DNA from: Glycera tridactyla
Lineage: Eukaryota
NCBI GenBank assembly: GCA_965644265.1
Contig: OZ286463.1
Span: 109,492,001-109,556,000 of the forward strand
Reading direction: 5' to 3'
DNA: 64,000 bases
Shown: positions 19,035-51,346 of the stretch, piece by piece
Numbering within the stretch: position 1 is the first letter of the stretch
Layout of the letters: every line of letters starts with the position of its first letter
The notes under the pieces: generated by a model
Seen by the model: the letters and a program-made list of their open reading frames with translations, nothing else
The model's database searches: none
Told to the model about the DNA's origin: nothing
Program-made: the position numbers and the translations under genes

Positions 19035-20095
19035 ATGGCAGAACACGACCCTGACATTGTATTCAGAATGAACCCAGAGGACACAAATGAGCCAGAGATG
19101 GCTCATGGAGTCAAATATCGTCCAGCAAACCCAGCCGCAGGTGATGTGGGGCATGTTCCTGAGGAGCTCCAACAAAATGCTGATTCTGATGAGGATGAAT
19201 CTGATGATGAGCTGCAGGAGGAAGCGCGACCGAATGTACTGCATGCAGATTATACTCCTCCTGTCCGAAGGACAACATGAAGCCTGAAAGCTACACGGGA
19301 GCCTAGGACTGGGAGGCCTACCTGTCACACTTTGAAGATTGTGCGGAACTGAGTGGCTGGGATTTATGCAACAAGAAATTGGTGCTATCAGCCAGGTTGA
19401 AGGGACAAGCACGAACCTACTACATGGGTCTGCCTCCAACAAGTAAAGCCTGTTATAATGCCCTGGTGGAAGCCCTCTCCCGACGTTTTGGGAGTAGGCA
19501 CCAAAAGGACTTGTGGCTTGCTCAACTAGAGGGAAGAAGACACCAGCCTGGTGAAAGTGTATCTGCATTAGCTGATGATCTTCGATGTCTGGCAAGCCGA
19601 GCCTACTACGACTTGGGTGAGAATGCGCAGGAGGCACTGGCACTCAAACAGCTGTACAAACCCTTGCCATTTGGAGTGAAATATCAGTGCATAAAGGCCA
19701 AGTGCTCAACTCTATATGATGCAGTGGTCATAATCGAGCAGTACGAAGCACTCGTGGGAGATAAAAAGAAGCAAGTACGAGCCACAAGCCAAGACCCTGA
19801 GAAGGATGTTAATCAAGAAGTCCTCAACAGATTGACTCAGTTGGAACAGGCTATAAAAGCAAATAAGGAGAGTTCTAATAATGAGAGCCAGCGTCCAGAA
19901 TCACGCAAACCTAGCTACCATTCCAATGGTGGACTGCAAGCCTGTTTCAGATGTAAATCCACACAGCACTTTGTTCGAGATTGCCCCGAGCCACCAACAT
20001 GCTATAACTGTGGATCGAGAGAGCATAACAGAAGGCAATGCCCCCAAAATCAGTCAGGTCGAGTGCAGGGAAACGACATACCTCCGACTTCATAG
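19035..20095 (+). pseudogene. gag: Gypsy Gag with two CCHC zinc knuckles (frameshift and stop near 19280-19310)
   Basis: KPESYTG.*DWEAYLSHFEDCAELSGW...LSARLKGQARTYY...ALSRRFG; CFRCKSTQHFVRDC and CYNCGSREHNRRQC. Confidence 0.88.
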
Positions 20096-20334
20096 GCATG
20101 CGTTGTGAGGAAATTAAAGGGCCATATGGTATGGCACCAGAAGGAAGGAGTTGCCTGGAGTCAATGGCAGGAGAAAGTGGAGATAGGCCCAGGAAATGGT
20201 GTCAAGCTCCTAGTGATCCAGAGCAGTTGAAGGCAACCTCACCTGGGATGGCAGCTAATGGCCAGAGTGAACCTGCTCTCTCTAAGCCTGTGAATTTCTC
20301 GGATGCCAAGGAATAAGTCAAAAGGATTGGAAAA

Positions 20335-23300: not shown

Positions 23301-24540
23301 CTATTTGATGGCATCCTCTACCGGCGGTGGGTGAAGGAGCAAGGTCGAACTCACTGGCAGCTGATTGTTCCTGTGACAGATGCATGGCGTGTAAACCACC
23401 GCAGGTCAAATCTCGGGCTCCATTACAGCAGTACAGAGTAGGGATGCCTCAGGAACGCATAGCTCTAGACATCTTGGGCCCTCTGCCATTAGGCCTATTC
23501 GACTGGTCGGTTTCTGTTGAGTGTCCGTTGCAAAAATGTACTCAACGGCCGTAGCCCAGTCGAAAAGGTTTCGTTTAACGAGTTCAATGCAGTCAAACTG
23601 CCGTTGAGATCATACACAACGAAAAAGTCTTAAGCAACCACCCGAATACGAAAGGTAGTCAACGGACCAGCCGTACTCAACGAAACCGACCAGTCGAATA
23701 GGCCTATTGACTGAGAGAGGCAATCGATACTGTTTGGTGGTCGCAGACTATTTCACCAAGTGGACTGAGTGTTATGCACTTCCAGATCAGACAGCTTCCA
23801 GTGTGGCAAGAGCTCTTGTGGAGGAGTACATTGCCCATTATGGATGCCCCCTGCAAATTCATTCAGATCAAGGCTCGAACTTTGAATCTCAGCTATTCCA
23901 GGAAATGTGTAAGTTGTTCAAGATGACAAAAACTCGCATGTCATTCATGAGGCCCCAGAGCGATGGCATGGTGGAATGCTTCAATCGGACACTTGGAGCG
24001 ATGCTCACAGCCTATGCAGAGAAGAAGCAACGTACATGGGATCAGTACTTACCTCTGGTCAGTATGGCCTACCGAGCTTCAAAGCATTCAAGCACTGGGA
24101 GGACTCCAGCAGAGATGACATTTGGACGGGAGTTGAGGATGCCCCTGGATGTGTTGATACCTCATCCCGCAGGTGAAGAGATGAGTCCTGATGACTATGT
24201 AGTGCAGTTGAAGAAGCGGCTTGAAGAAGTCTATGCTGATGCCTGAAAGCATCTGAAAACCAGTGCTGTCCATCAAAAGAAACAGTATGATGTGAAAACT
24301 AATCACAGAGAGTTCTGGGTGGGACAAGCTGTGTGGGTGCTGAGACCCACAAGAAAAGTTGATATTTGCTCAAAACTGACTTCACCATGGAAGGGTCCAT
24401 AGGTGATTGTGGAGAAGCTTGATGATGTCACATACCGGGTGCAGGCCAAAAAAGAACTTGCTGCAAAGGTGTACCGCATTGACTGTCTGAAAGCATACAA
24501 GGGCCGCCGTCCACCAACATGGTATCGGCCAACCAATTAG
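20335..24540 (+). pseudogene. pol: Gypsy Pol (protease, RT, RNase H, integrase) with several frameshifts, a deletion and a MITE insertion
   Basis: FLVDTGS protease; MPFGLTNSPSTFERLM and LLFVDDII RT; TDASHTGVGAVLSQ RNase H; IALDILGPLP, HSDQGSNFESQLF and PQSDGMVECFNRTL integrase. Most of the HHCC zinc finger is missing near 23370. Confidence 0.92.
23491..23705. mobile_element. 215-bp MITE (PIF/Harbinger-like) inserted in the integrase
   Basis: Perfect 24-bp TIR AGGCCTATTCGACTGGTCGGTTTC; 3-bp TSD ATT at 23488-23490 and 23706-23708. Removing it restores GPLPLTERGNRY. Confidence 0.9.
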
Positions 24541-30402: not shown

Positions 30403-30770
30403 GAATTGAGAATTGAGAATTGAAAAACTTTATTTTAACTCTGGCATGGGAGGCCATGAAGACCATTTCTTCCCGGTAAGAGTACAAAACATGAAATTCA
30501 CAACATATATACACAAATACAAGAGGAAAAGAACACAAGGATGACATGGCGGTATAGTAGGATGAGGAGTGGCACACATTAAGCTGGGGGAATTGTAGCA
30601 GATGAGGCATCTGTTTGTAAATTTACTAATATTTCATGTTTACGATGAAATCGAGATTTTGAGAAATTTGTTCTCACTGCTGGTAGAGGTGCCAATCAGT
30701 CATGTATTGCCTCTATAATGTTCTATTAGGTTTTTCCTCAGTACCAGTGAATTTTGAGAGTATATCTTGT
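30403..30770 (-). mobile_element. LINE-E: short 3'-end fragment of a LINE related to LINE-D, abutting the 3' LTR
   Basis: The reverse complement of ~30403-30570 matches the LINE-D 3' end at ~54880-55033 (CTCTTACCGGGAAGAAATGGTCTTCATGGCCTCCCATGCCAGAG, AATAAAG, (TTCTCAA)n tail). The right boundary is inferred. Confidence 0.7.
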
Positions 30771-31618
30771 GGTGGTTTCCCATCACAGGTGGTCACTCTT
30801 CAGAATTGCTTCAAAGAACAGGCTTAACTGTCACCTGGGAAATGACAATAAGGTCATTTTAGCCAGGAATTCAGCATTTGCTGGCAAATATTGACCCTGT
30901 AGATTGATAATTTAGGCCTGGGGAGTGGGCTGAAGGAGCTGTCAGCTGTTTTGACATGGAATTCAATTGATGGGAAATTCCTGGTGAATTCCAATGAGGG
31001 GGATACAGGAACATAACTGTGGTGTCATTTGGTGCTAGTTCTAGTCAGTTTTGAAGCAAGTTTCATCACCTGTCATTCGAGAGAATACACTATCGTGATG
31101 TAAACAAACCACCATCTTGCCACTTACCAATGTATTTTCCTGCCAGTAAACCCTGCCAATCCTCCAGAAATGATGGAATTTCTTGTAAAGACCATGTTAC
31201 TGGTGGATATCCTGTGTTTTCATGTATATCTAGTCCACATTTGGTGTCAATACAACCTCTGAATGCCTTCATGTTCTTGTCAATGGCCAGCTGTCAATGT
31301 CAGGCGCTGGTTGTCAGTCTTGTCAACGATGTCAGGATACGCTCATTCTCCGCTCAGGATAAGAATCAAAACCTCCTGAATGTCAGTATTTGTGCAAAAT
31401 ATGGGTAGATCCGCTCAGATTTATGGGTTTATAGGGTGTTTTATGCAGATTGTGCATTTATTCAGAAATTATTCAAGTGAACAGGCCAGTGTTTTGAAGG
31501 TGATCGCTGCACTCACTGCTCTCAACGCTGACTAGCGCAAGTCAGCGCACCGATCAAAACTGCCAGTTTAAATGAATAAAACTTACATTTGGTTGAATTT
31601 TCATCACATCTTGGCTTA
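30771..31618 (+). repeat. 3' LTR, first part (lacks the first ~18 bp and an internal ~50 bp relative to the 5' LTR)
   Basis: Matches the 5' LTR from 16947 to ~17843; breaks at CATCTTGGCTTA. Confidence 0.92.
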
Positions 31619-31913
31619 TTTGATTTGATTCTTTATTTTATATCGTCATTCAAACAGTAACAAAAGAAATTGATACAGCAGGTACATGCACCCTATGTAC
31701 AGGGTCATTTCCATGTTGACGATAAAATATAGATTTCTATCAAATTCAACCGTGTCATCAAACATATTAAGAACAAAATGCTGAAGTATAGAATTCCACC
31801 ATCTTACTAGGCACATATAACATGATCAAAGTATGTATGATAATGAGATGAATTATGTGATTGTGATGTATGATATGATATATGATCTGAGGCGATGACG
31901 TATGCAAACCACT

Positions 31914-34795
31914 TCATATGAACAGGAAATTTTTGAGCTTTTCTTTGAAATTTTTCATAGTATCTGTTCTGAAGTCTGTAAATCTGTTTATATGCATATT
32001 CCACAGTTTGGGACCGCGGTGTCTAAAAGAACCTTCAACCTGTTTCAGTCTAGGCTGATATGTTACCAGATAATCTTTTTGGATAGATCTTGTTCTATAT
32101 TCATGTGTTGGATTCAGATATGTACATAAAGGGTAGTATTGTGAATGTTGCTCTCCCATCAGTATTTTATTCACATGTAGTAGAGTGTGATATTCCCTAT
32201 GACAATCAAGGTATGGCATATTTAAACTTTCATGTATATCTGAAGTTCTCGTTCTAGGAGCACATCTTGTTATGATTCGAAATGCTTTATTTTGAATTCT
32301 TTGCAATTTCATAGAATCTGCCACACCAAGATTGTCGTAGACAATATCACAGTAGTCAAACATAGGGAGAATGAGCGACTTGTATAGCATCAGAGACATA
32401 CTCTTACTGAGTATCCCCCTGAGTCTACCAAGTACGCCCACTCTCCCTATTGTCTTCATCCTTATGTATTCGGCATGAGCAGAAAAACTAAGGATTTCAT
32501 CTAATATTACTCCTAAATATTTGAAGGTTTTTACCTGTTCAATTTCTTTATTTTCAAATTGTAATTTATAAGTACATCTTTTCACCTGATTCCTAGTTCC
32601 AAAGAATATAATTTGAGTTTTACTGATATTTAGACTTAGTTTATTTCTGCGTAGCCAAATACATACAGATGAGAGAGCCGCTTCCAATTTCTCTTTTAAC
32701 AAATCTGGTGATGTATCTGATACCATGATTGCTGTGTCATCAGCATATAAGCTAATATCCATACCGGGTCCACTCATGTACGAAGGCATGTCATTTACAT
32801 AGATGGTAAACAAGAGAGGACCCAGTATGGATCCTTGAGGCACACCACAATTTATATTCTTCTCTTCCGAGATAACACCATTTGCACGTACCTGACATCT
32901 TCTATCAGTGAGATAGCTTCGAAACCAATTTACACAAATGTCATCGGCTCCATATCTAGATAACTTCATCAATAAAACACCGTGATCCACCGTGTCAAAC
33001 GCTTTCTTGAGGTCAAGGAAGAGTACTCCACTGGTCCTATTTCTTTCTATATTCAAATATATTTTATCTAGAAATTCTAGTAGACATGTACCAGTGGAGC
33101 ACCCCCCCCCCCCCCCCCCCCCCCCCCCGAAGCCAGATTGCTCCCGACACAGTAGACCAGGGGTTTCAAAATATGCCGATACTTGTTGATGCAATAATCT
33201 TTCAAGAATTTTGCTAAAAGTGTTCAAGAGACTGATTGGTCTGTAATTCGATTCTACATTTCTTTTCCCGGTTTTGAATAAAGGCACTATCAGTGCTGAT
33301 TTCCAATTATTCGGAAAATACCCATTCAAAAGACTCAGATTGAGCAAATGTTCCAAAAGTGGGCCAAGCTCTTGCGCGCATAACTCGATGATTTTTGTTG
33401 GGGGGTATCATCTTTACCTGCTTTATTAGGTGAGAGATCATTTATTATTTTGATAATATCTTCTTTAGTTGTTTTTACAAATGATAATTGATTGTTTATT
33501 GTATAAGGAAAGTTTTCAAGTGGATCTCCATATCCTGTTGGAATTTCATTACTCAATTTCTCTCCCACAGAACAGAAGAAATCATTCAACTTATTTGTTA
33601 CATCATTAGGATCTGAACTCTCTCCCATTTTCAGAATATCGACAGCAACCTTTTTCCGACCCCAAAAGTCATTTACAGTTCATTACTCTACATCTCTTTT
33701 CAAGACCTACTTTTATTTCTTTATTTGTTTCACTCTTATCTAATTTAAATAATTTATTTGATTTCTCTCGTTCTCTAATTTGGTCCAGATATTCCCCATT
33801 TAACCATCTTGGCCAATTTGAGGTAACCCGATGTCTTTTTAATGGGACATGTTTATCTAATATATTATTTAGTTTGCAGTGCAACATTTCCGAACAACTA
33901 TCAACATTTGTACAATCAAAATATTCAGACCAATCAGTACCCACGATGTCATTTTTAATGTCACTGACATTAACCTTAGCATAATCCTTGAAAAAAACAA
34001 ATGTTGATGTTCTGGGTTGTGAAAACCTTTTTCTGGCTGTGATGACAAGACTATGATCAGATACTCTAGTTTCGAGAACTGCATGTTGATGGTACATTTC
34101 AGGTCTATTCACCAGTATGTGATCAATAATTGTATTTGTAGTTGTGGTAACCCTGGTATATCTATCTATCTGCTGGACCAACTGGTTGTTTTTTAACATA
34201 TTTTTATAGGTACTAGATTAATTTATCTTCTTAAAATCTATGTTTGTATCTCCGATTATTACAATGTCATGAACTTTTTCCTCATTTATATTTACTATTG
34301 AATTTTCCAGCCAGTCGATAAATATACCTTGGTTACCTTGTGGTGGTCTATATAGACCACAAATATACGTCGGTCTGGTATTAGGAAGAGAAAATTTCAT
34401 CCACATCGCTTCAATATCAGGTGTCATATTGTAAAATCAATCATCTGTTCCACACATCTATCTCTTCTGATATAAGCGAGTAATCCACCTCCTGACTGTT
34501 TACAACTATTCTTGTTTCTATCAGCACGTATCAAATAATAACCAGGTATAGACAATTCACCATCATCATGATTTCCATTCAAAAAGGTTTCTGATATTAT
34601 CAATATATCAAGTTTCCCCATGAGTAATAATAAGTGAACATCATGAACCTTATTTATTAGACTACGTATATTTAAAGATGATATCTTGACCCCTTTGAGC
34701 TCATTCATCTCCCGTGCACATGTTAGTTGTTTTGTTGTGGTTGCAGTATGATGCATGGTTTGGGTGGTATATGTGCTAGCAATGGTTAGATTCAC
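31914..34795 (-). pseudogene. LINE-B ORF2 (APE endonuclease + reverse transcriptase), frameshifted
   Basis: SSLNIRSL, ISETFL, GLYRPP, IGDTNID, IDHILVN (APE); NYRPISLL, FLDLKKAFDTVDH, GVPQGSILGPLLF, YADD (RT). A 27-G homopolymer at 33102-33128 keeps the frame. Confidence 0.92.
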
Positions 34796-36343
34796 TAAAT
34801 AAAATCTATCAAACTATATTATTTATCCAATAATGGTCATTTCAATATCAATTTTGATAAGTAACTTATCTTTACTATAAGATGAGGGCTATGCTAACTC
34901 CTACAGATTGGGCAGCTACCTCAACATTTATATCACCCCCCCCCCCCCAGTGAGCCATTTTGTTTAAATTATCAAAATAAAATTTTACTCGATCAAAAAC
35001 ATATAGAAATCAAATTAATCTCCCTATTCCCTCATCTCTCACTGCAACAGTTACGTTTCAAGTAATTAAATAAACTTTGAGGGGGTACTTGGTATTGGTG
35101 GTCCATGAAAACATAATTCATACATCACTCATGAGGCAAATCTCTATGGTCATTCACAACTATAATTAAGATTCAGAGAAAAATAATATGTAGTTTCCTA
35201 CCGAACACAAAACGCAGACTTCTAGGTTTGGTTCATCAATTATCAAAATGTCTGTATTCTAGAATTGGGCATGACTTTTATGTCGAATGATTCCCATAAT
35301 GGACATCCTCTGAAACCAGAATTTTTCGGTACCATTCTAGATAGTATACATTCTTTATACCCCGTATAATACAGTTTTCATATTTCAAATAATAAATCAA
35401 CAAAATTCAAAACAAAATCTGGGTCTGATATGTGTGCTGTGATTTACATACCGAGTTTTGAATCACATTCTTACTGTTAGATCAAGGTTAGTAGCTAGAA
35501 GCATACATTCAACACAAGTCTTGACAAAACTTCACCATTCTTTCCCTATTTCATCAAAATTTGTTGACATTCTGTTTCTGATTTTCCATAAATTAACTTG
35601 GGCAGGAAAATCACTGAACACCACATATTTGCCATTTTCATAATTTCTAAGATTTGTAACATCAATCTACACCTTCACATATGAATATTCCATTGACACA
35701 CTGGTACAGCATATACTATCATATATTGGTTTCACATATGATTTATCCATTGTATTTGACCACTGCAGATTCACATATCATTTTGGTGACATAGCTGATG
35801 ACACCAATTTTTATAAAATTCTCTGATTAATCCTATAAATAATGCTCTGATTGGCTATATGGACTGGATTGAAAATAAAATAGTTGTACATTGATATCTA
35901 CAGTGAAATAGGACCACTGTTGTTAGTGAGAACCATTTCATCCATATTTGTTTCCAGTGCCATATGTTTTGTACTGTTATACTGCTCACCATTATTTTCA
36001 AACTGAATCCCAGTCAGAGCAAATGATAATAATTTTAATAAAAGCAATATGATAACAGGCAATAGATCACCCAAGACATTTCACCTCCAGGACGACAGCT
36101 GTTGGTAAGAACCTTTGGTGTCATATCTTTGGTTTTCCTTGCCTGTTTCACCCATCATGCACCATTGGGCATGGTGATTTATATACTCATGACCATCGGT
36201 TGTGGTGCCAAAATAATAACTCAGATTTGATAGGTTGATGTCAGCATAGCAATTCATTCTCATACCCATCCATCATTCGGACATTCCTCTACCTGCAACC
36301 ACACAGTAAAACATATTTGACACATATCAATACATGGCATATT

Positions 36344-37321
36344 TTATGTTGCATAAAACCAATTATCTAAGATTGGTCCTGCCATGGAGAGACACAGAGC
36401 TCTGTTTCCTGACTGGTTTAAATGGATTTTATCTGGCAGAAACATTCCAGTCATGATTTCACCATGTGTACAGGACTTTCTCCTGTTTCTTGCTCGATAT
36501 CTCATGACCAAGCTCAGGTCTCGTACTTGATATGGTTTAACAAACATATGGTGTGTATGTATGAAACGTAATGGTGGGTTAAAATAACTCCTCAAGAAAT
36601 GATCAGTCCAGATTGCTAACACCTTGGTCTCTGGACACCAGTTTGGACGCCAGGTGATTGGAACATTACACAAGGTTGAAAGTGGAAAATAATCCTGTAG
36701 TAGAGAAAAAAATGAAATGTTAAGGTTTTAGGTCCATTTTCTGCACTTGAGTAGGCTAAATCAGACCACCTGCCAAGGAAGAGCGAAGATGAAGGGTGAA
36801 AGAGAGACCACCTCCTTGATATGACCAACCAAATGGGCAAAAGCATCATTTCTAAGACGTACAATTTCCCTGTTTCTCAACCTTGGATCACGAATGAAGT
36901 TGGTTCGACTCTTTATCTTTTTGGAAAACCTGTCTATATCATTCGAACCCAGTATAATCACAATATAGTTCGGTGCCACTTCATCATCGATTAGGGACTG
37001 CATGATATTGCCATATCTCTTCGCCTTCATTTTCCCATTTGGTGTGTTTGAGAAATTTCCAATGATTTCATCTCCAAAGGTTCCCCAGCTACTTCCACTG
37101 ATACCCTTGTATACCCACGGTAGCATCAGATGTTTGATGTTATCTCCTTCTGGCAGGGATGAGATATATTTGCTTAGCCTCCACACATGACTGCTCCCAA
37201 TACATAAGACATCTGGTGTGCCATGTTGTTCTAGTAGGAAACGTCTACGATATACAGGACATGTTTCTGGGCTCCAATTCACTCTCTCTTCTGCCAATCT
37301 CCTAGCAATATCTGGTTTGAC
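36344..37321 (-). CDS. LINE-B SGNH/GDSL-type hydrolase, two predicted exons (37321-36812 or 36770, and 36694-36344)
   Basis: Block I VLCIGSSHV, block II GISG, block III ILGSNDID, block V LPDKIHLN. The track's start at 37297 is TTG, not ATG; the frame is open back to an AG acceptor at 37322. Confidence 0.75.
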
Positions 37322-37502
37322 CTACAACAAATTATTTGTGAATTACAGTATTGTTAATTACTAATCCTTATGCGCATTATGCTGACAATTACTACAACAT
37401 TTCATTTATGTTGGTATCTAATATTTCATTTGGTTTACTTATTAATAGTTAGACTATAATTCGTCTGCTTCCTGCCTCGCTAGGTACCAATATATGTTAT
37501 TT

Positions 37503-37868
37503 CACTCCATCGATATGTTGCTATGATATATCCTTACATTCGAGATGTTTGAGATGTGACACGGTTTCACAACAAGTTCAACACGTGCGCGCGTGCATCT
37601 TCAACCTCGTGGCGTCTGCAACCCGCTATACAAATTATCAAAATACACTGTTTCTAGTATGCATGTCACTTCATTAAGGTCATTACACTCCGTCGATATT
37701 TTGCTATGATACATTCATACATTCGAGATGTTTGAGTTGTAACACGGTTTCACCACAAGATCAACACGTGCGCGTGTGCATCTCAACCTCGTGGCGTCTG
37801 CAACCCGCTATACAAATTATCAAAATACACTGTTTCTAGTATGCGTGTCACTCCATTAAAGTCATTAA
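37503..37868. repeat. 183-bp tandem duplication between LINE-B ORF1 and the SGNH gene
   Basis: CACTCC..CGATAT..GCTATGAT starts at 37503 and 37686; several substitutions. Confidence 0.9.
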
Positions 37869-37946
37869 CTCGTTCTTGAATCCTAAATTCATATCTTTCA
37901 CCGTCCGCGCAATGACTTGGAGGGCCGGCGTTGTCATATTCGTTGT

Positions 37947-40900
37947 TTACGTTACGATAATCTTGGAAAGTGATCCGAATCTAAACATGGCGATGTCAAG
38001 CATGCGCATTGATATCTGGGTCGGACTGGAGTGTTCGATTAAGTTGTTGGCCGTGACCACGTTTCCCCTATATGATCGCTGTTTCTTACCCCTTGATGCT
38101 ATTTCTTCTTTGGAATTTAATGCCGGAAAAATACTTGGGTCTGGTTCATACCTACTACTAAACTTTATCGTTGATTGTCTCATGTTTTTAAATGATTGTT
38201 CATGATCCTGAATCTTTTTCCTAATGTGTTGTATTGATTTCGCTACTGTGTTTTGTTTCTTCCCAGATTTGATTGAAGGTTGCTTTTTTGGCAATATCAT
38301 ACTTTCCCCAGTTTTTGGTTTTGATGGCACCACAAAATCTTTAAATTGACGTGGTATTTTGGTCACATCAAGGACTTTTGGTCCCTGCTCCACTAATGGA
38401 TTTTCATCATTTGGTTTGACATTATTCAGAGCCTCAGCACCCTCCACTACGTGAGAGCCCTGTGTATCCGAAGTATGACATTCCTCAGATGTTTTTCCAA
38501 CTGCATTCTGATCTTTTTTACTTATAGCATCTAGTAAAGATTGCTGGTCATTTAACATGATTTTTCTTTTAAGATAACCAAATCTCATCATTCACTGATA
38601 TTAACTACGGAGTCCCACAGGGATCCATCCTTGGACCTCTTTTATTTATTATGTATACCAATGACATGTATGTGAATATTAAATCTTGTGACATTTTTCT
38701 ATATGCGGATGACACCGCCTTGTGCTACACAGGCCGTGACATCCAAAATATAGAATCCAACCTTAATAAAGACCTTGCTATCATTGCAGAATGGTTCAAT
38801 GAATCAAAATTAACACTTAATACCTCTAAGTCTTGTTCTATGCTATTTGGTACCAGTCGGCGTATTCAACAATCTCCATCTCTTAATCTCTCTTATGCCA
38901 ACACACAAATCATGAATGTTAAAACCTATAAACATCTAGGAATCACTCTTGACCCAACTCTGAATTTCTCTGAGCACACGAACAAAATCATTAATAAAGT
39001 CAACTTACGTCGACGTGCCTCTTCTTTTTACGACCTTCTATAGATGAAAGCATGGCCTTATATCTTTACAACTCTCTGATCAAACCTGTATTCACATACT
39101 GCGATTATATCTATGATGGCTGCAATGTCACTGACTGCTCGAAACTACAGATTGCACAAAATAGATGCATGAGTACTATCACGATGAGTGGCTGGAACTA
39201 TTCTGCCACTCAACTAAGACATCAACTTAAAATGGAAAAATTAGCTACCCTAAGATCTATTTCCACTGCTACTGAACTATATAAAGCTCTTCATAAACTC
39301 TCTCCCCCAGATATGTCAAATTTATTCACTATTCAAAATCTACCTCTCACCATTCAAACTCGTTCAACTAGTAATGGTCACCTTCTTTTAGAAACTCCTT
39401 TCAATCACCTATCTTTCCCTGATCGAAATATCCGACATAGAGGTGCATGCCTATGGAACTCCCTTCCCAATGAAATTCGAAATTCTCCCTGTCTCTCCAC
39501 CTTCAAAATTGAAACCACAAAATTTCTCGGTGAATTTCATTAAAACTCACTCAAAACATAACAGAAACCCACAATCTTGATCTACTCATGCATCTAGACC
39601 GTGATCTGGATTAGTTCAGTTCGACTCTGATCTATACAGATCAAATCATTTTAATATCCTGATATAGCATATATCTTGTTCATGCCTCTCTGATAACCTA
39701 TTATTCATGATATCATTTATTACATTCTATGAAAGTATATCTTTGCATCTTGCATGTATATGAACCGGCCTTAGAAGTATATCACCCCATATGTCAATAA
39801 TTCCTACCTTACTCCAAACCCTTATTGACTTCCCTATCTTCCCTCTGATGCTTCAACCATTTCATATTATCTTTAATCTTCCTCCTATTCATCCTTATTA
39901 CCACTACCACCACCGCCCAAGCCACTCTCCATCTATCATCTATCACCTGATCCATTTGCCACCCATTTTTCACCACCCTAATACTCCCACCATAACACCT
40001 CATACCTTCACACTCCTTATCCCACTCCCAACTTCATTATTTGCCGTTCTCAAATGTTTGTTTTTAACAATGTTCAAAGTTACTACCGGTGTGCTCTATC
40101 TCTTCTGAAATTTTATATGTCATCATCAGCATGTAATATGACCCTTGCGGTCCCATGTCTTTTGATAAATAAAGTTTTTCTTATCTTATCTTCTTATCTT
40201 ATGATTTTTCTTTGTGATCTCCCGTGTGATACGCACACCTTGCCATCTTGGGTCCAAGTATGTGTCAATTTACCGTCTTTCTGTGCCATTTTTGCTTGAT
40301 TGAACAATGAACTTTCCCATGGGGTCAGATATTCCCTAATGAAGTATTTGGCATTTCTCAAGTTCTGTTTCTGTTTCAGAACTTTTCGACGAAGGTTCGG
40401 GTTACAAAATCGCACTCGAACAGACCTCGGGCGATCCTCTCTACTGGGACCAAATCTCAGCGCTTGACAAATGTCATCAGCCTTTACTGCTACCTGGGTC
40501 TCTTTATTCAAGAAATCTACCACTTGGTCGTGAAGCAATTGGTTCCTATTTTGTGGCAACCCTTCTATTATAACAACCCCTAATCGCTCAATTTTTTGAA
40601 GAGTATCTACATCTATTTCTGAATTTTCAATTCTATACCCATGATTTGTAATCCTTTCTTCATGATCCTCTACTTTCATTGACAGGTAGCCAATTGCTTC
40701 AAGAATGTCTTCTTTACCCATCTCGTCAATCTCTTCTTTGAACTCCGTCGGTTTTCCCTGTACTGTGTTTTCTTGTCTGATGGTTGCTATTTCTTGTTGC
40801 GTCTCTTCTACCATCTCCTGTATTCTTCGATCAGTTTTCTTGATACGATCCTCATGGTCGGATACCACCACAGCTAACTTATTGTGTTTAACCAGCATCT

Positions 40901-41735
40901 CCTCTTTACATGCTCTTGTTTGTCCCTTTACTGAGTCTTCAACGTAGTTTTGCATCTCAAGTCTACATGTCTTGATTACTACATCAAACCTTTGCTGCAA
41001 ACGAACATCAATTATATTGTCTGCTTGTTTTTCTACCAATGATTTCGTCAATGAGCTCAGGTTTAGATCCTCATCAACATGTCGAGCAAAAACTTCTTTG
41101 ATCCTCTCATCTATCAGCTTCAATAGTTTACTTGACCCTGGTAAGGTCTCATCACCATCTATAACAGGTTTGATCAGTCCTTCGGTGTCGTAGGCACCAC
41201 TGTCCAGCTATTTTCGTGACATGTCTTGCAAGGTCATATCCTCATCTATATTATGCAATTTCAAGTCATTAATGTCACTTATCCGGGCTTCATTAGATTC
41301 GGAGACTGTAGTATGCATAGTATATTCAGACTCGTCACGTTTCATTGGATCCGAATCCATTTCAGCGAATGCTCTACTGTCGTCGGCGGTTATGCTTGAG
41401 TGAGTGAGGTCACCGTCATTGTCAACGTTGTCCTCTTCAACTGCGATAGATTCACTACCAAGATGGCTACATGAACTCTCTTGTGTGTCCTTGTATTTCA
41501 TTACATCCGTTGCAAAAATCTGTGTCGATGTAGCAAGGGCTCCATCTTCATCAATGGAGTCCATTTTGTCATCAGAATAATCTAAATGTGACGATTCTGG
41601 CGATAGAGGTTGAGATTTTGGTCGTTTTTCATCCATTACGTTGATTTTATCTGGAGTGATGTCGTCGTATTTTCTGCGATGTTGTGTTGGTGTATGGCAA
41701 TAGCGATCTTGTGTATCGGACATAGTGAATGTCAA
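37947..41735 (-). pseudogene. LINE-B ORF1 (~710 aa when reconstructed), interrupted by one in-frame stop (41208-41210) and by LINE-C
   Basis: Removing LINE-C and one TSD copy joins ...HGRSQRKI-MLNDQQSLL in frame. RRM/CTD motifs: ERLGVVIIEGLP, RPRSVRVRF, FIREYLTP, HTWTQDGKV. Confidence 0.85.
38570..40200 (+). mobile_element. LINE-C: 5'-truncated CR1/L2-group LINE (RT C-terminus + 3' UTR)
   Basis: 13-bp TSD ATGATTTTTCTTT at 38557-38569 and 40201-40213; GVPQGSILGPLLF and YADD; AATAAAG plus a (CTTAT)n tail. Confidence 0.92.
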
Positions 41736-41932
41736 TCACTTACAGTTACAATTCGTCTTAGCAGGTCCTACTTGGTCCTCATTTGTGTATTATAGTACTT
41801 TCACATTCCTGTTGTCACCACACGTTCTGCTATCTATTCCAATGTCCGTAATCCTACTTCATTCGGGGGAGTGGGGGTAATATGTGAGAACTACTCCGTA
41901 AGTGTGTTTCAGCACGCCGCCATCTTGCTGGT

Positions 41933-42874
41933 TTTCCCTCAATAAATCGATAGGAATGGGTGATGAGTCCTCTAGTGGTGCCATTTTGAAGATATTTCAC
42001 TTTTCCTGCTGGGATCTGGAGCACTCCTGCGCACTCCCGTATTTGCAGCGCTGAGTTTACTCCCCGCCGATTGGCTGGCGTTCGGCGCAGACCTCAATTC
42101 CAGCCCGCTGATTGGCTGGCGCACTGGATCCTGAGTCTATAAATAGGAGGATCCACCCATTGAATCCAGTGTGTCCTTTGTATACTGTCAAGTAGCCTAG
42201 GTGGCCTGAGGAGGCTAGAGGGCAAGTGGATCTGAAGCAATCACCTTAAAAGTTCTTGAGTTTGGCAAGGTAAGCCATCATGGGATCTCTGCTTGATTGT
42301 GGTGATATGTATCACATTATATAGGATGGGTTTTCCTGTTTAGGAAATTATATCCAGTTAGTAAAGGGTTGATCCTGACCTTGGATTAGAGGGCCATCTA
42401 TTGCCAGATGTTGGCAGTATGGTCCAGTGGCTGAGGTTCAATGTGAAAGTAATTAAGACTTAGTTGGGGTTCTGAATTTATTTCAAGTGAATAAACAATA
42501 GAATCTCAGGCTATTTCAGTCAGTTATTAATTTTTCTGTGATAAGCTCCTTGTTTTTTTTAGTGCATTCAGCGAGTAGTTGCATAGCATGAGTATATAAA
42601 GTGAATGTTTTATTGAATATATATTTCTGCACTGGCCCACTGTGAAACTGGAACTGAGTATATACAATTTTGTACTGGCACTGTGAATTTGAAAGACATG
42701 TATGACCCTGGTAGCTGTTTTTCATGTGTGAGATTGTGAAATGAGTACTTTGTAAAGCTCTCAATTGCCAAATAAATTTTTCTGCCTTTTTATATTTCAA
42801 ATTTGACTGAGTTTGTCATCAATTCAGCTGAGTGTATGCAAAGCCCCGGCTTCCCTGACCTCGGTCCTGTTACA
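41933..42874 (+). repeat. 3' LTR, second part
   Basis: Matches the 5' LTR from ~17845 to 18786 and ends CTGTTACA, followed by the TSD ATAT. Confidence 0.93.
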
Positions 42875-42878
42875 ATAT

Positions 42879-45530
42879 TCTATGTCTATCGGAGACTTTT
42901 TTAAATGAATCAATATCCGACGAAGAAATATCTATTCCAGGAAATAGATTCATTCGCCAAGATAGGTCTGCTGCAAGCGGTAAGCTCGCAGGAAGTGGAC
43001 TATTAGTGTATTGTGAAGATCAATACACCATACACCTCAACGACAAATTGTGTATATGTAACCCTGCAATTGAAATTATCACCTTTTCCCTCATTCTTCA
43101 AAAGGCAAGACCAACCTATTATTTTCCCATCTACCATCCGCCAGATGGTTCTGTAAAAGACGCCTTAATGCATCTCACCAACATAGTTGAACATGAATCC
43201 CTCGCTTAAGTATCAGATAAAATCGTACTCGGTGATATAAATATTGATCTATTGTCTGAGAGAAATCATAAAACAAAATCATATCTAGCTACTTGTGAAA
43301 CCCCAGGTCTACACCATCAGATAAAAACACCAACAAGAATCAGTAACGACTCGAGTACTTGTATAGACCATTTCATAGTTAATCGCCCTGATTACTACCA
43401 ACGAACAGGGGTCATTGACCCCTCCCTAAGTGACCATCAGCTTGTATATGGAATTAGGCATCACTTCAAAAAAGATAAAATTAAGAATATGATGGAAATA
43501 AGGTCACTCAGAAACTTTTCTTTAGAACATTTCAATAAGGACCTAGAAAATACAGACTGGTCACCAGTCTTAGCCAGTGAAGACGTGAACAGTGCATAAA
43601 TCTCCTTCGAGAAAATTTTCACATCGACCATGGATAAACACGCCCCAAAGAAATTCATCCCAGCCAAGTTCGACCATCAGCCATGGGTGAATCATGAATA
43701 TTTGAACCACATTGACTATTGCGAATACAGGACTAAAATAAAGAATAAGAACCCAACTATCTTGAATATTGAAACGAAAAAAGAGGCTGTTCGAGTAAAA
43801 AACCGTCTAAAACGCTGTCTGAAGAAGGCCTATATATCTGATTGTCTGACTCGCACTCAAGGAGACAGTAAAAAGCTTTGGCAAGAAATCAAACGGTTTT
43901 GGCCACTAACCCAAAAGATACCTGTTGCTCCTACAAATCCCCATATAGATGACCCGCAAATAATAGTGAATGAGGTGAACAAATACTTCGCATCGGTAGG
44001 GTCGACCCTAGCGGATAAATTTCGAACCACGGACAGCGAATATGAGGCGTCTAACCTAGCGGAAGAATTTCGTACTACAAACTATGAATCGGAATCGAAT
44101 ACTACCGTAATGGAGAAGAAGTTTGACTTAAATGAAATTAATGCATACAATATTGAAGCTGCTATCAAAGACTTGAGTAATTCTAACGCTGCTGGACCTG
44201 ATACAATTAGTAGCTATTCTATAAAAGCGTCTATAAAGGTTATCTCCCCTGTCTTGGCATTTTTGATAAACTTATCTATAAAACACAAAATTTTTCCTGA
44301 CAACTGGAAGGAGGCAATAGTGACTGTCTTACACAAAGGTGGTAAATCCACGGATTATGGAAACTTCAGACCAATATCCCTTCTTTCAGTTATAGGTAAG
44401 ATAGCCGAGCGTGTAGTACATAACCAAACCTATGAATTCATTAGTTCGAATAATCTATTCAGTCCTGTTCAATTTGGGTTCAGGAAGAAGTCCTCCACTG
44501 GCACTTGCCTGTCGATTCTACTGGACAAGATATATAAGGCATCGGACAGGGGTGAAATTAGTGGGGTCCTCTTCCTGGACCTAAAAAAGGCTTTTGATAC
44601 GGTTAATCATGCTATTCTCTTGACGAAGTTGTGCAATCTTGGCTTTACTATCAATTGTGTGAAATGGTTCAGTTCATACCTCAACAATAGGCATCAAACA
44701 ACTAAAATAGGCAAGGTGGTATCTTAAAAAGTCGTTTTGAATTATGGGGTTCCCCAGGGGTCAATTCTGGGACCCCTATTATTTCTAACATATTTAAACG
44801 ATATTCTAAGTCATGTATCACACAGCTTTCCCCTACTTTACGCTGATGACATGGCGCTTTATGTCTCTGGTAAATCTGTAGGAATTATCAAAGAAAAACT
44901 TAATTATGATCTTCATGGAATATTGGAATGGTTCAAGGAACTTCGATTAACGGTGAACACCAAAAAAAGTAACGTAATGATATTTGGCACCTCGCAGAGA
45001 CTTCGAATAACTGATAGTATCATATTGAAACTGAACAATGAGAAAATTGAACAAACAGCAAAATATAAATACCTTGGCGTACAACTGGACTCTTGCTTAT
45101 TATTTGAAAATCATATTACATATCTAGTGAATAAGGTAAATCTCAGAAGGCGAGCCCTGCAATACCTAAGACCGTCCATTTCCAAAGATCTAACCCAGTA
45201 TCTCTACACTAGCCTAATTCACCCACTATTTACCTATTTGGATTACCTATATTGAGACTTCGAATAACTGATAGTATCACATTGAAACTGAACAATGAGA
45301 AAATTGAACAAACAGCAAAATATAAATACCTTGGCGTACAACTGGACTCTTGCTTATTATTTGAAAATCATATTACATATCTAGTGAATAAGGTAAATCT
45401 CAGAAGGCGAGCCCTGCAATACCTAAGACCGTCCATTTCCAAAGATCTAACCCAGTATCTCTACACTAGCCTAATTCACCCACTATTTACCTATTTGGAT
45501 TACCTATATGACGGCTGTTCTGCGACCCAT
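42879..45530 (+). pseudogene. LINE-A ORF2 main part (APE + RT), with stops and frameshifts
   Basis: ILCLSETFLN, IYHPP, LGDINID, CIDHFIVN; NFRPISLL, FLDLKKAFDTVNH, GVPQGSILGPLLF, YADD; ends YDGCSAT at ~45527. Confidence 0.9.
44997..45510 (+). repeat. 257-bp tandem duplication in the LINE-A RT
   Basis: GAGACTTCGAATAACTGATAG starts at 44997 and 45254; one visible difference (CATATT vs CACATT). Confidence 0.92.
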
Positions 45531-47285
45531 ACTGACTTAGACCTGAAACTCACGGAAACCAAGTCTACCAATATTTCCATTAAATCGCCCCTCAACACGC
45601 AGGATAATGTATTTAAACTACCTTTCTGCCAAGAATCCTTTCTTGACAAGGAAGCGCTTCTCAAGTCTGAGTCTCAGAAATCCATTACTCCAATGAATCC
45701 TGAAATTACGTGGAGTGATCTTGAAATCTTTGAAAACAAAATCTGGGACTCCATCATTGACAAACTACCTCATATGGTAAATGTAGTCACTTCGGACAAA
45801 TTTGATGAAGTCTCGGCTGACCTGGCTAGTTTTACCAAACAGGGAAACTTCAACCTGGCAGAGCTAGAATCGACTATGCAAGCTGAGCTTACTGCTCTCA
45901 AAGATGAACTTAAGTTTGTGATTTCAGAGAATGGAAAGTTGGGTAGAACTCTGAAAAATCATGAAGCAACAATTGATGAAACTGTCAAATCAGTCAATGC
46001 CTTCAAAGAAGAATTCGGTCTCTCCATTATCAGATTGAGGAAAGATCTTGCTGAAGCTATTGAAAACACTAAGAATCCGGAGTCATCTACTCCTACAAAT
46101 ATGAATACTTTTGAGTCTATCGAAGGCCAATTGACCGACCTATCTAATAAGATGAATACCACTCAATTTCAACTGAACAAACTTGGACAGAGAATTGAGT
46201 CCGTAGAACTTGATGAGAGACAGAATGTAATCATCATCGAGGGAATCCTTGTACAACCCGGTGAAAATCTACACGATAAAATCATCTCCACTCTGAATTC
46301 ATATTTTGAATCTGAGCTTGAGCACTCCGACATTATAGCATGCCAATTTTTTAGCAAACCAGCTGAAGATATCTCTCAACCTAGATCGATCAGGGTTAAA
46401 CTAAAGTCTCAACAGCTCAAACGATGGATTATGAGACAAAAAGGAAGGCTACGTGGCTCAAATATTTTCATAAACGAGCATCTCACAGCAAGTAACAACA
46501 GCATCTACTTTCTCGCTAGGAAAGCTTGCAAAAGCAACATTCTTCATCACACATGGACTGATAATGGTAGGATTTGGGCTACTAAAACGAGGGACTCCAT
46601 ACCTACTTGGATCAAAGATCCAGAAAAGCTAAAAGAAGAATTGGAAGCCATTGCGCATGGCGGAGGAAAATCTACACCCACTTCTCGAGAGGACAAAATG
46701 GTCCTAACTGATCCTCCTACTGAAAACTATGAGCCGTTTGCAAATCAAACAAGACTGAATAATCGACGTGCTGAAACAGAGCGTCACAGAAATCCTGGGT
46801 CACAATGCAATGATCTAGAGCGTCAGAGATCTCATCGTTCGTCTCCTGATCATCTTGTCACCAATCACCTCAATTCTAAATTTGCTGCATCACTCAACAA
46901 CAAGAATAACATTCCAAACTTCTCTTTTCAGGGCCATGGTTGTGCGAATCCTCGTAACACTTCGACTTCAGTCCGGAATGGCGCGCCGAATGGACTCAAT
47001 GCTAGACTTCTAAATATTGCTTATGAAGACCGCTCTTTGCAGCCGAGTGACAACCATGTACGTGGTGACCTGAGACTTCACAATAGAGATCAACACTCCA
47101 TCCGTAAAGACCTGGGCTCTCACTATTCTCAACGCTATTCTCTTACTTCTGGTCCTCCGACATCAGCTGATAGACCTAGAAATCCGAGGCCCGGCTCGGT
47201 ACACCAAGAAAACCGCCTTCGTGAGTACTACTCAAATTTTCCTCTTCCCAACTATGGCAGAAGGAGGTCAAATACCAATTTATGA
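45530..47285 (+). CDS. LINE-D ORF1, N-terminally truncated (coiled coil + RRM/CTD + disordered tail)
   Basis: The frame is open across ~1750 bp; ELDERQNVIIIEGI, QPRSIRVKL, IFINEHLT, HHTWTDNGRIW. Confidence 0.82.
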
Positions 47286-48207
47286 GCTTTATCGCTATCC
47301 AATTGATCGTAACATCATTGATATCACCGAATTCGATAAGAAACAAGCTGACGAGCAATTGAATCAACCAAGTGAATTCCAGCTCAGATCATCTGCCGAA
47401 AAGACAATCTGGGAATTTGGAATCCCTCATATACTCTTCATTGGAGCCTCTAATGTTTGTAACATAAAGAGGGAAATCATCAAATCCTATTTTCCTGCAC
47501 ATCTCAAGTGTATGCTCTCCTACTCCTATTTTATGGGTTTTAGCGGCATGACATTTGCACGTTCACTAGATTATATGAAAGGGAAATTTGAGTCACAAAA
47601 GAAAAAAAATGAGTATGGATTCCCGTGGATGGTCTATAATGTAGACAAACACAAACCTAAATATGTTGTCATCCTCTTAGGAGGAAATGATGTGGATAAT
47701 TTTGACCGGCATATTAAAGCCCTCAAGAAACAGCACTCTGCACATCAATTTAAAAATGCAGCTGAATATGCCCTCGAGAGGTGGGACACCGACCTCAGGC
47801 CAGTCATAAGGCACTTCATCATGGACTTATTTTCCAGAACAAGTGGTACGCCCCTATATTTCATCTCGATTCCCCCTCGCGAATGGTGGGGAGACTATGC
47901 TCGCCAGCTGGCATCTAACATTGAATTCTTCATTAACAGATTTCTCAGGAAGGAGATTCCTGTCAAGAGCCTTAGATGTGCCACCCTTTACTATGATTTT
48001 AATCTCATGGCAAATTTCAACCCTAACCAGAGTGACATTGTGAAAGGCTTCTTAGAACCAGATGGTGTCCATTTTAACGACAAGGGATGCATGGCTCTCA
48101 CTCGAGATGTTCTCTATAAACTCCTTGATGCCTTTGGGCTTGAGCAGCGAGACAAGAGGAACAAATCAAAGACTAAGGCAAATCACAAAAGTGTGTATTC
48201 CTATTGA
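47254..48207 (+). CDS. LINE-D stand-alone SGNH/GDSL-type hydrolase, intact, 317 aa from the ATG at 47254
   Basis: Block I ILFIGASNV, block II GFSG, block III LLGGNDVD, block V EPDGVHFN. It overlaps the end of ORF1 by 32 bp in another frame. Confidence 0.85.
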   Translation: MAEGGQIPIYELYRYPIDRNIIDITEFDKKQADEQLNQPSEFQLRSSAEKTIWEFGIPHILFIGASNVCNIKREIIKSYFPAHLKCMLSYSYFMGFSGMTFARSLDYMKGKFESQKKKNEYGFPWMVYNVDKHKPKYVVILLGGNDVDNFDRHIKALKKQHSAHQFKNAAEYALERWDTDLRPVIRHFIMDLFSRTSGTPLYFISIPPREWWGDYARQLASNIEFFINRFLRKEIPVKSLRCATLYYDFNLMANFNPNQSDIVKGFLEPDGVHFNDKGCMALTRDVLYKLLDAFGLEQRDKRNKSKTKANHKSVYSY

Positions 48208-48299
48208 ATACAGCTCTGTCATTCATAATCTAAGCATATATTATGGAATCTGGATACATCTATACTTTTCGAAGAGCTATACTAATGTTGCTTTGGCTG

Positions 48300-48600
48300 G
48301 GAATGGTGACGTTCCTAGTTTGGAAACGTCTATCTTATTTTCGGCTGGACTCACACGAAGCTCCTCCTGATCTCTACAATTGTTCGAAGTTGGTGTTCCC
48401 CTGCAACGTTCCTAGTATGGAAACGTCAATCTTATTTCGGCTGGACTCACACGAAGCTCCTCCTTATCTCTACACTTGTTCGAAGTCGTTATACCCGTGT
48501 GACGTTCCTAGTTTGGGAACGTCAATCTTATTTCAGCTGGCCTCACATGATGCTCTTCCTGATCTCTACACTTGTTCGAAGTCGGTGTTCCCCTGCGTCG
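48300..48600. repeat. ~97-bp tandem repeat, 3 copies, each with the hairpin ACGTTCC-TAGTTT-GGAAACGT
   Basis: Motif copies at ~48308, ~48405 and ~48501. Confidence 0.9.
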
Positions 48601-48749
48601 AAATATTGCCTGTGATTTCTGAATGATTCTGGAGATCTACAACCCATCAACCATTCCATTCCATCTATAAATTGGAAATCTAGCCAAGTTGATACTTTCC
48701 GTACTTATATCACTACATGCCCCACAAGTGAAAAACCAACTAAGCAACT

Positions 48750-50090
48750 GTTCCTAGTTTAGAAGCATCTATGAACCTCAATGTCACCTATGATATCTGA
48801 TGTCCCTAGATAGGAAACATCAGGGCTTCTGTGTCTCATTAACAGTCGTTCCTAGTTTGGAAACGTCTGATGTGGTCTGTAAGGTTTTCTCGACTTCCGG
48901 TTTCTGTTTCCTGTTATAAACACATATGTCGCCTAGAATATCTAATGTTCCTAGATAGGAAACGTCAATGCTAACGTGTCTTGTTAACAGTCGTTCCTAG
49001 TTTGGAAACGTCTGATGGGGTCTGTAAGGTTTTCTAGACTTCCGGTTCCTGTTATCTGCTATAAAGACCTATGTCACCTAGGATATCTGATGTTCCTAAA
49101 TAGGAAACATCTATGCTACCGTGTCTTGCTAACAGTCGTTCCTAGTTTGGAAACGTCTAGCGTGTTCTCAACTTCCGGTCCCTGCTTCCTGTTATAATCA
49201 TTTACGTCACCTAGGACATCTGATGTTCCTAGATAGGAAACGTCAGTGCTACCGTGTATTGCTAACAGTCGTTCCTAGTTTGGAAACGTCTGATGTTTTC
49301 TTGACTTCCGGTTCCTGCTCCCTGTTATAATCATTTACGTCACCTATGATATCTGATGTCCCTAGATAGGAAACATCAGGGCTTCTGTGTCTCATTAACA
49401 GTCGTTCCTAGTTTGGAAACGTCTGATGTGGTCTGTAAGGTTTTCTCGACTTCCGGTTTCTGTTTCCTGTTATAAACACATATGTCGCCTAGAATATCTG
49501 ATGTTCCTAGATAGGAAACGTCAATGCTAACGTGTCTTGTTAACAGTCGTTCCTAGTTTGGAAACGTCTGATGGGGTCTGTAAGGTTTTCTAGACTTCCG
49601 GTTCCTGTTATCTGCTATAAAGACCTATGTCACCTAGGATATCTGATGTTCCTAAATAGGAAACATCTATGCTACCGTGTCTTGCTAACAGTCGTTCCTA
49701 GTTTGGAAACGTCTAGCGTGTTCTCAACTTCCGGTCCCTGCTTCCTGTTATAATCATTTACGTCACCTAGGACATCTGATGTTCCTAGATAGGAAACGTC
49801 AGTGCTACCGTGTATTGCTAACAGTCGTTCCTAGTTTGGAAACGTCTGATGTTTTCTTGACTTCCGGTTCCTGCTCCCTGTTATAATCATTTACGTCACC
49901 TATGATATCTGATGTACCTAGATAGAAAACTTCAGTGCTACCATGTTCTGCTAACAGTCGTTCCTAGTCTGGAAACGTCTGATGAGTTTTCTCGGCTTCC
50001 AGTTTCTGCTTCCAGTCATAAACACTAATATCACCTACGATTTCTGACGTCCCTGGATTGGTAACGTCAGTGTCACCGTGTTATTTCTCA
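48750..50090. repeat. Higher-order array: ~133-145-bp units with two hairpin motifs and one ACTTCCGG site each; 556-bp block duplicated
   Basis: About 20 copies of GTTCCTAG(TTT/ATA)GGAAAC; 48783-49338 is repeated at 49339-49894. Confidence 0.92.
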
Positions 50091-51346
50091 CCAAATAAAT
50101 TTGTTTATTTCCCTGCACAACTGCATGATATCTTGCTCGACTGAACAGCACGCATTTCTTTTCTGGAAGATAGATAACTCTCTGCTCGTCTACATGGGAA
50201 CCAGCACAGAGTATTCTACCTGAGATGCTAAATGCATGTCGCTTAAATTTGAATTTAAATTGAAATTAAAATTGAAATTAAGATGGACCTTCAGGTACCC
50301 TCCTTATCGTGAGATACTTCCTCGAGTAGAAACTTTAGTTATATTAATTAATGCCAATTCGAGCCTACTGGATTTCTTATTTGATACTGTTTGCACTGGA
50401 TGATACTTCCTACAAAGAAGTGAACTTTAAATATTCAAATTGATGACCACTTGAGCCTACTTGACTTATATGATTCTGTTTTGCATACAATTACTGTAAA
50501 ATGTACGGATGCACATGCTCAAGTTTTACGCAACATTTAGACACTGTTTTTCTCTATCTTATTGGTGTGTTACCTATTTTTAAGGAGATTTCTGCCTTGA
50601 TGTTGTTTAGTGTCAAATTATTGTTGCTCACACTAAGCTCAACTGGATTTTAATGCTACTATTTCAGCATATAAGTCACTATTAAATGTAGTCTCATTTT
50701 TTATGAGGACTAGACAGTCATGGTGTCAGGTCCCCCCTTTCTTTGTGCTGAGGAAAATTTTCCTCTCAGAATACTTGTGCGTACTAGGACCTACCAATTG
50801 GACACTATCTGCATGTTGTGTGTATATATTACATTCTACAACCCAACTGATTTATAGCTTCTGGACAGTTACAGATTGGAGCATTTCAAAGTGTCAATTT
50901 TCTTTTGTCAGACATTATATCGCCTCTGTGCTGCCGTTCCTATTTTGGAAACATCAGTGCACTTCTCTACTATGATAGCGCATTGATATTGCCTATATAT
51001 TGCTGAATATAAAGACAAATTCTATTGACTGCATTTGACTAGCCTGCAAGCAATTGTCTCTCTCTTCAAATGACTCTCACTGGTCATGATATATCCTATA
51101 GTTATCCATCTGCCCATATTAATCGTTCATGGTAGCAAAGTGTTTTTCTCCCTCTCTTTCAACCTACTTGACCAAGAGTGTTCACTATACTCACCCTGAT
51201 CGCTTCTATAGCATGACTCTATATTACTACTTCACTTACTTGTTTCTTTCGCGTTTGCGTAGATGTTATTCCTTTATTAGTGTTCTGGAAACTGTGTACT
51301 TATTAATATACACCTCTGTTATTCATTGCCTCATAGTGGTTATAAC

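Follow-up and report, generated by a model that had tools for sequence, protein, structure and literature searches.

The window, the whole stretch of 64,000 nucleotides analyzed here, carries on its minus strand a copy of a retrotransposon, LINE-B, in which a gene for a predicted SGNH hydrolase lies between ORF1 and an endonuclease-reverse transcriptase frame, ORF2. A homologous SGNH gene lies on the plus strand, in a second element, LINE-D. The features are as follows.

31616..41927, minus strand: LINE-B copy, full-length but dead, with ends common to copies on other contigs
37996..41723, minus strand: ORF1, ∼655 aa in intact copies, with a coiled coil and a LINE-1-like RRM/CTD
38570..40200, strand not given: foreign insertion in ORF1, a gap relative to other copies
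37998..38007, minus strand: NRF1-like GCGCATGC motif at the ORF1 stop, candidate internal promoter
37869..37937, minus strand: predicted SGNH exon 1, with ATG, 23 codons, ending AAYGAG
37322..37868, minus strand: predicted conserved phase-0 GT-AG intron, 547 nt in the window copy
36344..37321, minus strand: predicted SGNH exon 2, 292 codons without the SINE
36702..36800, minus strand: 5′-truncated SINE plus target duplication, the SINE part being 95 nt (36800-36706)
35911..36113, minus strand: 24-nt motif, two copies in the SGNH-ORF2 spacer (36113-36090 and 35934-35911), repeated across the clade
34856..34884, minus strand: CATCTT and a small hairpin upstream of ORF2, seen in several families
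31914..34813, minus strand: ORF2, AP endonuclease and reverse transcriptase, ∼980 aa when intact
47254..48207, plus strand: LINE-D SGNH gene, homologous, ATG-initiated, with no intron in the coding frame

The window copy of LINE-B starts CAAGATGGC and ends with AATAAAG and a short (AATCA)n-like tail. Comparison of ten copies in 20-kb stretches indicates that intact LINE-B is ∼8 kb long and comprises three same-strand frames (ORF1, SGNH and EN-RT ORF2), all of which are open in two of the ten. At the 5′ end of full copies stands CAAGATGG, at the 3′ end AATAAAG plus a short tail, and copies that are 99% identical on different contigs have different flanks, staggered 5′ ends and a single 3′ end. 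The clade of three-ORF LINEs to which LINE-B belongs has been active recently, and its dispersed copies have the shared 3′ end, variable 5′ truncation, short-repeat or A-rich tail and lack of terminal repeats of APE-type non-LTR elements. Most of the 22 copies viewed have no clear target-site duplication at the element ends; such duplications are often missing in CR1-group elements, to which LINE-B presumably belongs, judging by its ORF2 motifs and tail. The two flanks of the window copy (30768-31621 and 41921-42874) match one continuous repeat at 16944-18786, so this copy inserted into a copy of another repeat.

The window copy has lesions throughout. ORF1 is broken by a stop, a frameshift and an insertion of ∼1.6 kb, which contains a plus-strand LINE reverse transcriptase fragment (38573-39543); the SGNH gene contains a SINE; and ORF2 is frameshifted, lying in three frames with a ∼74-bp deletion. 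ORF2 still matches RVT_1 with E 7.6e-32, and Exo_endo_phos_2 weakly in this broken copy. A coiled coil, RRM and CTD are predicted for ORF1, as in type II (L1-like) proteins: the top 10 Foldseek matches of the core model, whose CTD part is of low confidence, are all human L1 ORF1p (best E 3.6e-5), and Transposase_22 is weakly matched in 5 of 13 ORF1 proteins.

The original prediction placed an intron inside exon 2, from 36811 or 36769 to 36695. The two SGNH halves do share one frame, as it stated, and the letters it cited are all present (GTGGTC at 36811 and 36769, CCTTAAC, and TACAG ending at 36695). Nevertheless, the flagged segment is, near certainly, an ordinary insertion of a tRNA-derived-type SINE in a dead copy. 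Relative to other copies, the extra DNA measures 99 bp (36800-36702) rather than 117. In a genome DNA search, other LINE-B copies match either side of 36800-36702 and not the segment itself, which alone matches many unrelated places in the genome at 96%–100% identity. The insertion is bounded by a target duplication of 4–5 bp, (T)CTCT, and the reading frame is kept across it because the net insert is 99 bp.

The SINE is ∼182 nt (181–184 nt) at full length, of which the window holds only the 3′ ∼95 nt. Six full-length copies show an A box in five, a B-box-like word in all six and target duplications of 8–15 bp in four, together with a T-rich tail. In its length of ∼182 nt, A/B-box-like words, T-rich tail, target duplications and 5′ truncation, the family to which the flagged segment belongs resembles tRNA-derived SINEs; an Rfam search with three SINE loci gave no match. 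A 27-mer from the SINE has 3,628 exact matches genome-wide. The SINE is young (L025-L030, 96%–100% identical), and several target duplications open with CT/TC directly after the T tail. An introner-type origin was considered for the SINE and rejected, given the single dead copy and the imprecise removal.

The site is empty elsewhere. Eleven other copies show the site, and all 11 are contiguous there and read through as one ORF, the outcome that had been named as contradicting the intron, and the SINE core occurs inside exon 2 in none of 128 other loci. The GT at 36811 is part of a native Val codon and the AG at 36695 of a native Gln codon; the GT at 36769 falls within the SINE, and the branch-like CCTTAAC (36725-36719) and T tract are the SINE tail. 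Among 39 intact members, there is no length change between the flagged donor and acceptor codons, and the donor codon has GT in 34 (a conserved Val) whereas the acceptor codon has AG in 2. The GT/AG conservation that the original prediction proposed to look for is thus found at one end only.

A second intron here, and with it an ORF1-SGNH fusion made by splicing, is therefore extremely improbable in our view. The letters allow an in-frame splice, GT at 36811 is common among intact members, and the SINE tail supplies a branch-like word and a T tract, such that this single copy may be spliced by accident. However, the insert is in no other copy, a splice from 36811 to 36695 would remove six native codons, and the window copy is dead through several further lesions. 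The fusion fares no better: SGNH is a separate gene with its own ATG and not part of ORF1, its first exon lies ∼60 nt behind the ORF1 stop (25–72 nt in most intact copies), and no conserved donor-like site in ORF1 was found in 857 alignment columns from 14 families.

A different, predicted intron lies ∼500 bases upstream of the flagged segment. It had been noted that no ATG precedes the block-I serine and that the frame opens after TTGTTGTAG (AG at 37323-37322); both observations hold, and the comparison below indicates that the frame starts at a splice acceptor. Exon 1 had been missed because the donor of the window copy has decayed to TT; the acceptor TAG is intact, and a 183-bp tandem duplication occupies 37496-37871 in the intron region. 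Alignment upstream of the acceptor shows YAG kept while the preceding DNA has drifted. An ATG exon of 23 codons, with GT after it, is present in all nine of the other copies that reach it, one being shifted by a 4-nt deletion.

A protein search gave 135 matches at 45%–100% identity, of which 128 loci were read; those left out are the two halves of the window gene, three with truncated or frameshifted starts (L058, L059 and C28:57064186) and two low-ranked, unfetched matches. The 128 loci form 26 families at 80% identity (minimum identity 39%), and about a dozen of them share flanks and are segmental duplicates rather than independent insertions. YAG precedes the same codon in 126 of the 128, as TAG in 69 and CAG in 57; the two being about equally frequent, the triplet is not a codon. 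A peptide profile built without the donor letters located exon 1 in 116 of the 128, directly followed in all 116 by GTA and never by GTC, GTG or GTT, which argues that the donor is not a Val codon. The DNA between is non-coding, AT-rich and free in length (237–618 nt; length mod 3, 45/40/31), is open in none of the 116 and is biased to pyrimidines before the acceptor (0.62 versus 0.47).

Exon 1 is under purifying selection. pN/pS is 0.12 for exon 1 and 0.15 for exon 2, as against 0.87 for an intron-triplet control, in pairs that share ancestry and are not independent. Exon 1 drifts at third positions and comprises 23 codons, or 24 in one family with an extra codon at the start. The 12 loci under the exon-1 score are accounted for by truncations inside the intron, truncation of exon 1 (L092), small lesions (L054, L163), a deletion (L129), divergence (L136) and, in L065, L081 and L178, intron truncation or possibly divergence. 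In 100 long loci, ORF2 lies downstream on the same strand in 99, ORF1 upstream in 91, and all frames are open in 39. SGNH and ORF2 distances are correlated (Mantel r 0.94), with 23 of 27 supported splits shared and 2 in conflict.

Across the clade, the conserved GT and YAG restore the frame and bound a stretch of free length between constrained exons, as expected of a U2-type intron. Judging from these sequences, the upstream intron is, very probably, conserved across a large clade of LINEs and looks functional, and the SGNH gene is likely spliced. ORF-based annotation misses its first exon.

Ten near-identical copies on C29 and C34 share flanks (L122, L124, L125, L127, L128, L131, L135, L148, L149 and L152), a case of segmental or tandem amplification of one insertion. 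In more distant families the acceptor lies two codons further upstream or about ten codons nearer a conserved Pro (L193, L195, L196, L198-L200, L202, L204, L211; L207, L210, L217, L221), possibly through indels or intron sliding.

The LINE-D gene offers an intronless comparison. Its homology to the LINE-B gene has a probability of 98.9%, and the type yielded 126 matches, with an ATG and no coding intron in 30 of 30 loci read. The block-I Gly is residue 64 in LINE-D and residue 65 in the predicted spliced product of LINE-B. These features bear on a reading in which the splice signals are kept for a role other than cis-splicing, either as a spliced-leader acceptor with exon 1 a separate ORF, or to engage U1 against early polyadenylation. 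The splicing is itself deduced from DNA, and spliced-leader trans-splicing occurs in some invertebrates. We nonetheless consider such a role very unlikely, as no Met is conserved in exon 2 ahead of the catalytic Ser, donor and acceptor match in phase in 116 of 116 loci, and the length of exon 1 equals exactly the N terminus of intronless homologs.

LINE-D itself (43600-54264, plus strand; L222-L251) represents a second large clade of LINEs that have three ORFs and an SGNH gene without an intron. In LINE-D this gene is separated from the next EN-RT frame by a tandem repeat array (48781-50091), and the junction of a nested LINE is recognizable from a 256-bp duplication (44997-45509).

A word-index protein search with exon 2 found no match at E ≤ 0.001 among proteins of 160–511 aa. 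A profile search found 123 outside homologs, of which 41 show block I and 26 reach the junction. Gln, which is what a CAG acceptor would read as, stands exactly before the start of exon 2 in 14 of these 26, with at most 2 at any other offset; in the remaining 12 the N terminus looks uninterrupted or unrelated, all at the protein level only. A metagenome scan of 54 candidates gave one locus, L252, on a 1.4 kb contig, with a GT-AG pair 289 nt apart, one base upstream and in phase 2.

The SGNH blocks GSSH, GISG, GSND and DxxH are conserved in the 39 intact members, and the blocks and modeled fold together predict an SGNH hydrolase. The exon-2 model (pLDDT 81) matches PAF-AH/GDSL folds with E 3e-4 and TM 0.4–0.55; Pfam gives weak support (E ≤ 0.1 in 20 of 39 members), and PDB sequence searches gave no match below E 0.1. 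The spliced product would be a hydrolase of ∼315 aa with an intact Ser-Asp-His triad and, by analogy with the ZfL2-1 esterase, may act on lipids or membranes for the ribonucleoprotein.

New insertions keep the intron. A degenerate exon-2 pattern, which misses copies altered at its fixed positions, has 491 matches genome-wide, of which 450 follow YAG at the same codon (reversed-pattern controls, 0). The 41 exceptions, all of them read, are explained by point changes in the acceptor, small indels, truncations, one duplication, or membership of families with a differently spaced acceptor; there is no intronless copy among them, and exon 1 is joined to exon 2 in 0 of the 491. Four loci (L083, L089, L140 and L145) are 5′-truncated inside the intron, with relatives 81%–96% identical. 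Such ends are expected of aborted reverse transcription on an unspliced, intron-containing template. Mobilization from unspliced RNA, which the original prediction had proposed, is thereby supported, and the search for intronless processed copies that it suggested found none among the 491 matches. Had a subgenomic RNA been copied, 5′ ends should cluster at exon 1; no such cluster was seen among the 100 long loci, and one further copy starts 34 nt before the exon-1 ATG.

Two features point to a separate origin for the SGNH transcript. A GCGCATGC-type motif, which we take to be an NRF1 site, is found with ≤2 mismatches in 19 of 24 family representatives, 56–82 nt ahead of the exon-1 ATG, and is missing at this threshold from the other 5; controls gave 4.7% for shuffles, 0/24 for upstream windows and 0/30 for the LINE-D type. 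CpG o/e has its maximum, 1.4, across exon 1 and the beginning of the intron, compared with 0.35–0.7 elsewhere and 0.98 in the 5′ UTR. Together, these suggest an internal promoter before exon 1 rather than a fusion to ORF1. An upstream ATG directly after the ORF1 stop was also considered and rejected, being missing from the C26 family.

The SGNH-ORF2 spacer is 1.3–2.6 kb long and holds 34–67 ATGs, so that translation of ORF2 behind them needs a special route. The 23–24-nt spacer motif is found by a strict pattern in 15 of 26 family representatives, in 0 of 520 shuffles and in 0 of 28 LINE-D-type loci. It occurs in up to three repeats after the SGNH stop (for example in L051, L060, L086, L110 and L117). 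Its sense strand resembles a branch-point word and its antisense strand a 5′ splice site, and it may fold into a small hairpin. The CATCTT upstream of ORF2 is the complement of the first bases of the element, AAGATG, and its hairpin has a 3-nt loop; the same arrangement precedes ORF2 in L084, L122, L164 and the C26 copy. An acceptor-like TTTAG before ORF2 in LINE-B was set aside, as it is missing from two more distant families aligned. Polyadenylation hexamers are not enriched in the spacer (AATAAA, 18 versus 29.5 expected; ATTAAA, 21 versus 34.3), and an early RNA end, as proposed below, therefore has no visible signal.

These data are best read, and probably rightly so, as two transcripts from two promoters. 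A 5′ promoter would give a full-length RNA used for ORF1, for ORF2 and as the template of reverse transcription. This RNA would stay unspliced owing to the weak +4 to +6 positions of the donor, its distance of >2 kb from the cap and the lack of an acceptor upstream. The other promoter, rich in CpG, would lie at the ORF1 stop and extend into the intron; its RNA would have a short leader that places the donor close to the cap, and splicing of this short-leader RNA would yield the hydrolase. The short-leader RNA would not be copied because it ends in the ATG-rich spacer or cannot translate ORF2 across it. The cap-binding complex is reported to affect the use of cap-proximal donors (PMC2800227).

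Alternatively, a single promoter may produce a full-length RNA that is alternatively spliced, as for retroviral env and Copia shGAG, with SGNH read by re-initiation after ORF1 and with packaging or copying limited to the unspliced RNA, for which the repeated spacer motif may be responsible. The short distance from the ORF1 stop to the exon-1 ATG in most intact copies is of the kind that suits re-initiation in L1, and the spacer motif is restricted to the intron-bearing clade. Even so, we regard one promoter as unlikely: a spliced RNA with ORF2 and the 3′ end should leave joined copies, and none occurs among the 491 matches; the NRF1-like motif and CpG peak would also go unexplained. Considered together, we put at about 0.7 the probability that the flagged intron is a SINE, that the middle SGNH gene of the clade is split by a conserved GT-AG intron and likely spliced on an RNA of its own, and that the element is copied with its intron in.

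Spliced RNA for one protein (env) and unspliced RNA as genome is an arrangement familiar from retroviruses and errantiviruses. Ty1/Copia shGAG follows the same division (PMC5580714). Copia and retroviruses differ from LINE-B in being LTR elements that package in particles and in that their splice removes coding sequence of another frame, whereas the LINE-B intron is non-coding. Within non-LTR elements, splice sites are likewise reported for human L1 SpIREs and for spliced TART RNAs (PMC5860796 and PMC1636488). Spliced L1 RNAs are copied and are dead ends according to the former; in the LINE-B clade, by contrast, splicing would build a selected ORF, and no spliced copy was found.

Penelope-like elements also keep introns after retrotransposition, a behavior called highly unusual among retroelements, and in Penelope and Chlamys-3 the intron overlaps the internal promoter, as we propose for LINE-B (PMC8557442). 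They belong to another class, with GIY-YIG, a telomerase-like reverse transcriptase and terminal repeats (same source), whereas LINE-B is a LINE with staggered 5′ truncations whose intron splits the coding frame of an accessory gene.

As for the hydrolase, the esterase ORF1p of CR1/L2 LINEs such as zebrafish ZfL2-1 is likewise an SGNH hydrolase in an APE-RT non-LTR element (PMC3905857, PMC4120745 and PMC13343379). The likeness extends to basic, arginine-rich stretches and to the PAF-AH/GDSL folds matched by the LINE-B model. In the ZfL2-1 type, as described there, the esterase is ORF1 itself, whereas in LINE-B it is a separate, intron-split middle gene beside an L1-like RRM ORF1; with a separate SGNH gene and an RRM-type ORF1, LINE-B differs from the type IV esterase ORF1p elements. 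According to a structural study, no esterase ORF1p in Repbase had an RRM (PMC3905857), so LINE-B unites in one element two features reported not to occur together in the ORF1 proteins of Repbase. Neither “intron” nor “splic-” appears in the text of PMC3905857 and PMC4120745 that was covered, and a literature search, with Repbase and subscription journals outside its reach, brought up no LINE whose coding intron is conserved.

The copying of a LINE is assumed to remove its introns, and both retrotransposition reporters and the logic of processed pseudogenes depend on this. A LINE clade that needs splicing and yet copies unspliced RNA would be a direct test system for the choice of template RNA and for the place where such templates are made, and the presence of intron-bearing and intronless sister clades in one genome provides material for the study of intron gain and loss. 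On balance, we lean towards a broader picture of an old, widespread and still active LINE lineage whose accessory lipid hydrolase is gated by an internal promoter together with an intron close to it. In this picture the RNA that transposes avoids splicing so fully that hundreds of copies include no processed one, homologs of other organisms share the intron position, and the spacer motif sorts the two RNAs. If true, this two-transcript lineage would overturn the usual expectation that LINE copies made by target priming lack introns.

The remainder of the window contains further frames, all on the plus strand. An 892-aa open frame at 1697-4375 has a weak OTU-like match (E 1.5e-4) and a perfect 893-bp internal duplication (2223-3115/3114-4006), which may be an assembly artefact. 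An L1-like ORF1, frameshifted, belongs to a further LINE at 13575-15916, and translated motifs identify frameshifted Gypsy-type gag, protease, reverse transcriptase, RNase H and integrase frames at 19307-24246.
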